In this document: one piece after another, positions 16,571 to 18,484 of the stretch
Position numbering within the stretch: position 1 is the first letter of the stretch
Layout: each line of letters begins with the position of its first letter
Assembly: GCA_964016885.1 (NCBI GenBank)
Contig: OZ024743.1
Coordinates: forward strand, 202,368,001-202,432,000
DNA length: 64,000 bases
Origin: Eledone cirrhosa
Taxonomy: Eukaryota
Reading direction: 5' to 3'
Notes under the pieces: model-generated
The model's input: only the letters and a program-made list of their open reading frames with translations
Told to the model about the DNA's origin: nothing
Database searches by the model: none
Position numbers and translations under genes: made by a program

Positions 16571-17966
16571 TAAGGGTAGACTGGTATGTGTACACTATAG
16601 TCAATAGGAAGTGCCCTATTCTGTGTGTTCATATAAGTGTTTTTATTTTATTTTTTCTGTGTATGCATGTAAATCTGCAATCAAGAAGCATGTTTTATGC
16701 AGTATGATATTTGTTTGCAAAACAAAAAACAAGAGAAAAGGGAAACATGTATTTTGTAGGAATATTTCATCTGAAATGTACAACGACAATAAAATCTGAA
16801 ATAAAAAAAATGAAATATATATTTTTTTGTCATTTTTTCTTTCTCACTCTAATTCTCTAACTCTCTTTCACTATTACTCTCTCCCACTCTCTCTCTCTTC
16901 ATCTTTCTTGCTCTCCCTCTTTTGCTGGACCAACAATAAAAAGAAAATGATGAAATAGAGTAGATCATTCGTCCAGCTAATGTAAACGTCACATCAAACA
17001 TGATATGTCAGTTTAAAAAGTTGATGTCTACACACAACTTATACCCAAGTGATATATCTTACTCAGATTATTGCTATATATACTTAGATAAGACTTTTAT
17101 TGATATTCTTGCTTAAGTTAGCAAATGTATCTTTATTCAAAAATTTGTAATTTTTTTTTTTTTTTTTTTTTAAACAAATCATTTTTTTTTTTACTGATCA
17201 TTGGTAAATATGGAAGAATATCTCCGAAGCATTTCGGGAAAAATAATGACATCAACAATTTCTCTTGTGCCATTTTTTTAGAAAAGAAATAAGGAAAGCA
17301 TTGCAGGAATTTTTGTTTAACTCTAGATCAGCAATGGATGTAGATGCCTATGATTCAAGTCATCCAAATCCCTCAAATTTCCCACGTATTCCAGATTCAG
17401 GACTTTCCCTTTTCAGGACAGCGGTTTGTTACTTGAAGGAGAGTAAAAGGGTTAGCGTGTCGTATTCAATGCCTGGTTATGTGTTACCGTCTCACTGCGC
17501 TCTGATCTTTGCTTACGTCCGTTCAAGCTTTGATAGGAAAAATACCACTCCACGGACGGAGAATTTGCGAAAATGTTGATGATTTGGACGGGCAGCTTTG
17601 AGTTATCTGACCCGGGTCTCTCTGTTCTGATTTCAAATTTCCATTTCTACTACCAGAAGTATCGATCAGCTGATAATATCTGCAATGGAGCGTCCAATAT
17701 CACTTGGAAGCGCATTTCACTTGGAGCAATATGACGATCTGCCTATTTACTTTTATTTCGTTTTCTTTTTATTAGTACGCCAGGAAACCAATAATGCCTT
17801 AGAAATCTTGTGTGAATGGAGTATATAAATATATATATGTATATATATACATAGAATATTCGAAAATATTCTGTATGTTTATAATAAACATTTTGAAGAC
17901 CTAATCGCTATAGAATAGAATACGTCACGTATTACAATTAGATTCTCGATAAAAGCAAGGGAAGTA

Positions 17967-18005
17967 AGTCTACGCGTTTCATTCTTGTTAGAATTCATCA
18001 GGACT
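17967..18005 (-). ncRNA. Canonical minimal type I hammerhead ribozyme
   Basis: agtc-CTGATGA-attct aaca agaat-GAAA-cgcg-TA-gact. Confidence 0.88.
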
Positions 18006-18277
18006 ACATATCCAGTGCTTTTATCGAGAATGACACAGCTAGAGACTTATAGAATACTTAGCTGTGTACAGGAACTGGTTTGAAAGAGCGGTTGCCGGTC
18101 CGGCAGAAATTAGAAATTGGAATAAATGCTCTGAAATAGCGATATATATGTGAATATATACATAGAATATTCGAAAATATTCTGTATGTTTATAATAAAC
18201 ATTTTGAAGACCTAATCGCTATAGAATAGAATACGTCACGTATTACAATTAGATTCTCGATAAAAGCAAGGGAAGTA

Positions 18278-18316
18278 AGTCTACGCGTTTCATTCTTGTT
18301 AGAATTCATCAGGACT
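18278..18316 (-). ncRNA. Canonical minimal type I hammerhead ribozyme (second tandem copy)
   Basis: Same sequence as 17967-18005. Confidence 0.88.
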
Positions 18317-18484
18317 ACATATCCAGTGCTTTTATCGAGAATGACACAGCTAGAGACTTATAGAATACTTAGCTGTGTACAGGAACTGGTTTGAAAGAGC
18401 GGTTGCCGGTCCGGCAGAAATTAGAAATTGGAATAAATGCTCTGAAATAGCGATATATATGTGAATATATAGGGAAATAAATAA

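Follow-up and report, generated by a model that had tools for sequence, protein, structure and literature searches.

The hammerhead-bearing repeats of Eledone cirrhosa form what their sequences indicate is a young family of ~19,000 ribozyme-carrying units, inserted mostly as two head-to-head tandem arms with a tail on one side. These are very probably retrozymes moved by Penelope-type machinery, and a monomer circle was probably their usual template. Joined into one account, in which a circle-templated non-LTR retrozyme is copied by a Penelope-like enzyme at both sides of a break, this is the explanation we favour, with slightly more reserve than for either part. Published work already covers retrozymes as a class, the idea of a circular template and the connection with Penelope. 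The two-armed, tailed, clonal retrozyme footprint was not found in the literature searched, which covered few subscription journals and included the main texts of PMC7229834 and of the Li et al. 2026 preprint.

A hammerhead dimer in the window

The window is a 64,000-nucleotide stretch of contig OZ024743.1, and on its minus strand, at 17843..18471, lies a single-armed retrozyme insertion of 2.02 units. An earlier note on this DNA had described a head-to-tail 311-bp dimer, and the repeat is exact: at a period of 311, positions 17843-18160 match 18154-18471 with zero mismatches over 318 bp (TRF calls the block as 17831-18471, 2.1 copies). Counting unit positions from the predicted cut site, as is done throughout, the 5′ end falls at about 122 and the 3′ end at about 128. 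The units are non-coding, as claimed, all frames inside 17843-18471 being shorter than 60 amino acids. Each carries a type I hammerhead on the minus strand, where the note had placed it, with CTGATGA starting at 18312 and 18001 and followed by ATTCT-AACA-AGAAT, GAAA, CGCG and TA; the full ribozyme string is GTAGTC-CTGATGA-ATTCT AACA AGAAT-GAAA-CGCG-TA-GAC. The first hammerhead and its enclosing 14-bp stem occupy 18254..18341 (minus strand; core 18312-18282, predicted cut after 18282), and the second with its stem 17943..18030 (minus strand; core 18001-17971, predicted cut after 17971). The 14-bp arms of the proposed outer stem are present at 18328-18341/18254-18267 and 18017-18030/17943-17956. 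The description of the ribozyme as minimal did not stand: in the predicted fold, stem I instead runs through an internal loop into a long stem. The predicted cuts lie 311 nt apart, in line with the exact 311-nt product that had been proposed, and bound a monomer at 17971..18281 (minus strand) with 34% GC.

Several further elements recur in both units. The palindrome ACGCGT, at 18283..18288 and again at 17972-17977, is predicted to form stem III by pairing between units. A hairpin at 18186..18202 (second copy 17875-17891; minus strand) lies upstream of the start sites described below, is conserved in two sister families, B and C, and is a candidate protein-binding element. A 35-nt segment, unit positions 132-166, is found internally at 18116..18150 (minus strand); it is the terminal 'tail' on one arm of typical insertions and non-terminal in the window copy.

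The surroundings were said to be (TA)n, and TA does occur on both sides, but the left tract is short, and in the right one the flank is repeated in inverted orientation. At the 3′ (short-type) end, the TA-rich target at 17821..17850 merges with the unit's own TA-like stretch. At the 5′ junction (18469..18552), positions 18469-18509 are the reverse complement of the flank at 18512-18552, an inverted target duplication around (TA)n that replaces the second arm. A similar junction was seen in one of six other single-armed copies (L105). In the window copy the second target end apparently primed on itself, looping onto its own (TA)n so that ~40 nt of flank were copied in place of RNA. The window copy is an atypical single short-ended arm and a minor member of its family. 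Holding two complete hammerheads, it would give one 311-nt monomer on minus-strand read-through, although no promoter was identified; that it was mobilised is clearer than that it serves as a source of RNA.

A motif scan of the whole window returned the two dimer hammerheads and one weak TA-rich chance match; it overlooked a Penelope-type hammerhead at ~15575 that was found later. Rfam gave no gathering-level match on the dimer, and on both units only a sub-threshold HH9 hit (17.8 bits vs 52). A chance origin of the motif is excluded by the 1,146 exact genome-wide copies of its 37-nt form, against 0 for the reversed control.

A family of two-armed insertions

A genome-wide check of copy number, which the earlier note had called for, showed that the dimer is not alone. 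The 15-nt hammerhead end occurs 19,121 times in the 3.0-Gb genome (control 1), and unit position 166 is joined exactly to (TA)n at 1,041 junctions (control 0). These counts were made by sequence-pattern matching, since word-based DNA search skips common words. Units measure 310-311 bp and stand in arrays of 1 to >35 copies.

Most insertions consist of two arms set head to head. Among 94 consecutive tail ends examined from the first 100 listed, 88 belonged to such two-armed insertions, four showed one orientation, and two lay at a gap or ran beyond the DNA examined. Because this set was chosen on one end, sets picked on the hammerhead alone were added; in these, 8 of 8 loci in one set and 13 of the first 17 in another were two-armed (the latter with three single and one at a gap). 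No convergent arrangement of arms was seen among the insertions examined. The arms carry a mean of 4-5 hammerheads each, and both are usually multi-unit. Fold-back copying of one arm was rejected, since either arm can be the longer one (30 vs 38 of 83).

The outer ends are fixed and the inner ones are not. The tail-type end falls at unit positions 161-173, with a mode of 166, and the short-type end at 130-132, extending up to 140 where the TA-like stretch blends into the target. These two 3′ ends lie 26-36 nt apart, and neither coincides with the cut site. Inner junctions occur at scattered unit positions, some of them at an internal inverted repeat. L1-type twin priming was rejected as the rule on account of this scatter.

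The Penelope-type footprint and its probable helper

The insertion ends resemble those of endonuclease-bearing Penelope-like elements (Craig et al. 2021, PMC8557442; Frangieh et al. 2024, PMC11167929). The hallmarks described for those elements are an inverted 5′-truncated copy, a 30-40-bp tail at one end and a (TA)n target (PMC8557442). The purified Penelope protein is reported to nick AT-rich DNA and to extend both strands, with cDNA starting at two internal sites downstream of the hammerhead and the tail being the stretch between them (PMC11167929). Eledone insertions likewise have internal starts 3′ of the hammerhead, TA-joined ends at 130-132 (to 140) and 166, and, in the 88 of 94 noted above, the inverted copy that the window copy is missing. 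They differ in having units without a reading frame and many full units per arm.

We infer the Penelope-like helper from this footprint. The genome is rich in Penelope families that have long open frames and ends joined to TA. Among the families sampled, a sampling that was not exhaustive, no autonomous element shared real sequence with the unit, and variant-motif searches returned only sister families B and C. The hairpin and the tail motif around the start sites are kept in the present family (A) as well as in B and C; across the three, 92% of hairpin cells are paired and one pair shows a compensatory change, a weak covariation; one row of the alignment (B180) runs over a junction. The two motifs are candidates for the binding site of a Penelope-like protein.

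Two Penelope elements were observed along the way. One very abundant family (L121-L150) has 710-745-aa frames, a (TA)n target, inverted copies, a short end and a tail of ~85 nt; it has only a 9-nt word and TA-rich filler in common with the unit. The window itself contains a decayed Penelope-like element at 11500-15720 (plus strand) with a DKG motif, a Cys-rich linker and a GIY-YIG tail. Its hammerhead lies at ~15575-15605, and from the cut site it continues for ~90 nt, to a 3′ end at 15694 within (TA)n; its motifs suggest a Neptune-like element.

Predicted folding and constraint on the ribozyme

The ribozyme had been described as a dimer type with a palindromic stem III, and the predicted fold of a two-unit RNA bears this out. 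A 401-nt RNA spanning both ribozymes folds, unprompted, as a double hammerhead in which the two ACGCGU segments pair together and both cores are open. Predicted pair probabilities in the inter-unit stem III are 0.91-1.0 for the window dimer and 0.86-0.95 for the common 310-nt haplotype. The two-hammerhead RNA folds better than 100 of 100 shuffles, with a folding z-score of -7.6 that is inflated because the repeat itself raises it. Within one unit, stem III is a single pair closed by a CGCG loop (GAAA-CGCG-UA). In the predicted fold of the monomer circle (MFE -69.8 kcal/mol), the stem III bases are mostly unpaired. With the palindromes predicted to pair between units, a tandem transcript would be expected to release a monomer hardly able to cut itself.

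Sequence variation points to constraint on the same structure. The hammerhead is intact at 916 of 928 anchored sites, and 3 of the 12 others are chance matches to the anchor. None of the 9 hammerhead positions that vary array-wide falls on the 15 core positions (p 0.014), single-unit mutations damaging the core or stem II number 9, and stem I covaries. This apparent selection on the hammerhead agrees with the predicted double-hammerhead function. Published precedents point in both directions. The axolotl HHR_Amex1 also has a stem III of one pair and a palindromic tetraloop, and cleaves efficiently only as dimers (PMC7229834); mutant rescue supports C3-G8 pairing (PMC11167929); and 8 of 9 Xenopus dimers were reported uncleaved in vitro (Li, Clavereau and Pollet 2026 preprint, bioRxiv 10.64898/2026.07.22.740005). 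Self-cleavage and circular RNA of the Eledone family are predictions from these folds.

Clonality and the nature of the template

Most insertions appear to have been copied from one sequence. The same majority haplotype occupied both arms in 59 of the 64 arrays with full units on each side, against a shuffle mean of 6.8 and maximum of 19; of the five arm-discordant arrays, three involve single-unit changes and two are chimeras. There are 30 haplotypes among 77 arrays. In 6 of 42 arrays, private variants (those seen nowhere else in the arrays sampled) run through all units of the two arms, as many as 22, and a one-monomer bottleneck is needed because these variants are fixed throughout. Minor variants are mirrored between arms in only 7 of 72 cases, of which six are one block in array L107 and one is a threshold artefact. 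As the single monomer, a covalent circle and a nicked one kept together by stem I would leave the same pattern.

A>G changes account for 7 of 25 array-wide substitutions and 3 of 68 single-unit ones (p 0.003), and they recur at stem positions 21, 260 and 277 on several haplotype backgrounds. All-or-none copying of an edited circle would give such an enrichment; stems also tolerate A>G. No ADAR-type 5′ neighbour bias was found at the A>G sites (4/7, p 0.28), and no mutation hot spot at the ligation point. Selection of some loci on position 301 exaggerates the variability there.

Clonality is no proof of a circle, because exchange after insertion also occurs: array L075 contains a 7-unit block repeat, and arrays L074 and L094 have scattered variants shared between units. 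The same element and the same Penelope-type enzyme could also have worked mainly from uncleaved linear read-through multimers of a homogeneous source array, with cDNAs starting near the 3′ end and circles as by-products. In array L107 the units follow the order Y,Y,X inward from either outer end; this mirror-symmetric chimera of two haplotypes needs either one heterogeneous multimer template or DNA-level copying. Array L084, with its two haplotypes in blocks, is compatible both with twin priming on linear RNA and with an edited circle. Autonomous Penelope copies yield equal inverted, tailed insertions, and the enzyme in vitro used mainly unprocessed RNA, hammerhead cleavage being dispensable (PMC11167929). 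Linear templates would nonetheless leave unexplained the 30 array-wide haplotypes, the private variants fixed in young arrays and the near-absence of mirrored minor variants. The conserved catalytic core would destroy such templates, and the inner ends of the tail arms show no concentration around the second start site. We regard linear multimers as an unlikely usual template, though the most serious of the alternatives.

The remaining alternatives dispense with tandem copying during insertion, with the unit as an element of its own, or with the dimer itself. Short Penelope-type insertions might later have expanded locally by unequal exchange, as in the satellite model of Li et al. 2026; in the window copy, one unit would have been duplicated in place, which is possible because both ends (positions 122-128) fall in a TA-like stretch. 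The units of this copy share a private base, at position 123, that is absent from the other arrays examined, and the L075 block is itself a duplication. As a general account, local expansion is quite improbable, given multi-unit and near-identical inverted arms, dispersed at >1,000 sites with scattered inner junctions. It is still harder to credit that the units are 5′-truncated ends (pseudo-LTRs) of an autonomous Penelope element, with hammerheads as passengers. Their ends are of Penelope type and homology between retrozymes and pseudo-LTRs is published for Xenopus (Li et al. 2026 preprint), but no RT plus GIY-YIG frame lies inside or joined to the units in ~100 insertions, Penelope matches near arrays are at least 337 bases from the nearest hammerhead, and the 3′ regions of the Penelope families seen have no real similarity to the unit. 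Least probable of all, at the edge of what is worth entertaining, is an assembly artefact; the two units are identical and no long read was seen across the locus, yet arrays of 1 to >35 copies occur genome-wide with locus-specific haplotypes and precise ends.

The favoured account, copying of a circle by a Penelope-like enzyme, would proceed as follows. Read-through RNA would be cut as double hammerheads into monomers, which would circularise and, with stem III predicted to be open, resist self-cutting. A Penelope-like RT/GIY-YIG protein, acting in trans, would prime from both sides of one break in (TA)n, and both cDNAs would begin on the same monomer, one at each start site, whether that circle was covalently closed or nicked. 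Reverse transcription going round and round the small circle would generate the tandem units. The cDNAs would stop at random positions and be joined at the inner junctions through microhomology of 0-5 nt or by a few filler bases.

Comparison with known retrozymes and Penelope passengers

The classification as a non-LTR retrozyme, proposed in the earlier note, is borne out by every sequence-level feature that could be examined. Retrozymes are expected as multiple tandem units of ~150-450 bp with GC below 50% and a highly self-paired monomer; the Eledone units, at 310-311 bp, have the composition given above, no terminal repeats beyond the units themselves, and a highly self-paired monomer. They are like the metazoan non-LTR retrozymes of coral, mussel and axolotl (Cervera and de la Pena 2020, PMC7229834) in having GC-poor, non-coding units that stand in tandem, measure a few hundred bp and carry one type I hammerhead each. 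To these features the Eledone family adds the head-to-head clonal arms, the one-sided tail and (TA)n. That paper proposes circRNA templates with Penelope as helper. By description, the family also resembles the axolotl HHR_Amex1 and newt satellite hammerheads, with which it has in common the one-pair stem III and palindromic tetraloop, dimer cleavage being documented there in units of ~330 bp; the commonest Eledone haplotype has a U-U at the base of stem II, as in HHR_Amex2 (PMC7229834). A plant LTR retrozyme, with a type III hammerhead in two LTRs, was rejected on the type I topology and tandem units, and an autonomous Penelope-like element on the lack of an RT plus GIY-YIG frame.

Li et al. 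2026 likewise see animal retrozymes as non-autonomous Penelope derivatives. Their basis is co-occurrence and pseudo-LTR homology, and they invoke local amplification, whereas the present argument draws on insertion ends and haplotypes. Non-autonomous Chlamys elements such as MRC1 are similar as non-coding Penelope passengers with multicopy head-to-tail insertions; they differ in resembling the 3′ end of their helper, and PMC8557442 reports no canonical hammerhead for that clade.

Sister families and neighbouring repeats

Two older families are related to the unit. Family B (L072:1104; L109-L120; L151-L180) has a 318-bp unit that is 69% identical, with 342 tail junctions, and is likewise inverted and tailed. 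The hammerhead core is of the U3-A8 kind at 41 of 45 sites, and the 12-nt palindromic stem III exists in two sequence forms and is perfect in 23 of 45. Family C (L183-L210; L258-L287), with a unit of ~335-340 bp, retains ACGCGT along with the module of hairpin and tail. Tandem hammerheads of yet another family, with a period of ~460-470 bp, were observed at L104:2590,3051 and L114:2447,2917. A TAGC..GG motif at unit positions ~60-71 (18211-18222, minus strand) is kept in families A, B and C, and we take it to resemble a Pol III A box. The unit has no clear B box and contains T4 runs.

Other repeats lie close by. Directly to the right of the dimer, window positions 18543-19270 form a large inverted repeat with (TC)n(TA)n(GA)n in the middle, probably two tail-to-tail copies of another TA-targeting element. 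A short palindromic repeat family in (TA)n occupies 20346-20564 and 20942-21103, and is a neighbour of many arrays as well (L034, L120). Calling of tRNA genes returned none; a tRNA-like fragment at 63234-63289 (minus strand; Rfam 33.7 bits, uncalled by ARAGORN) is probably the head of a SINE.

The unit in sequencing runs of other organisms

Words of the unit also appear in sequencing runs from other organisms, in 20 rows from 17 studies that contain 53-83% of the words. RNA runs did not figure among these rows, which says nothing for or against transcription. Six of the 20 runs were inspected. One (X1) contains the family at depth together with its flanking repeats. The other five (X4, X5, X6, X7 and X9) each contain one clean contig of 331-340 nt with a single haplotype, a 310-nt loop that is 99% identical; of the other repeats in the window they contain nothing beyond (CT)-rich or short stretches. 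Raw reads from other samples of the organism in X9 (X23, X24) included 0 reads on the unit, two runs of the sample in X6 had none of the unit words, and a search of viral and metagenome contigs did not find the motif. Transfer, contamination and a single long read would look alike in these runs, which were kept out of the evidence.

Conclusions and outlook

The mover of animal retrozymes and the role of circRNA as template have been proposed since 2020 and not shown. The Eledone family now offers start positions (130-132 and 166), a (TA)n target, a 310-nt substrate and >1,000 young insertions. The template question can thereby be taken up with the Penelope assay already published and by counting clonal versus mirrored arrays across the genome. 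If the predicted folds hold, the missing partner palindrome would explain simply why a circle does not cut itself. A wider picture can be drawn tentatively, and we hold it at somewhat less than even chances: the arrays may be a fossil record of rolling-circle retrotransposition by a Penelope dimer at two fixed sites, in which A-to-I edits on the circle were written to every unit, the circle was safe for want of a partner palindrome, and the 310-nt loop found in other organisms could reflect horizontal spread.
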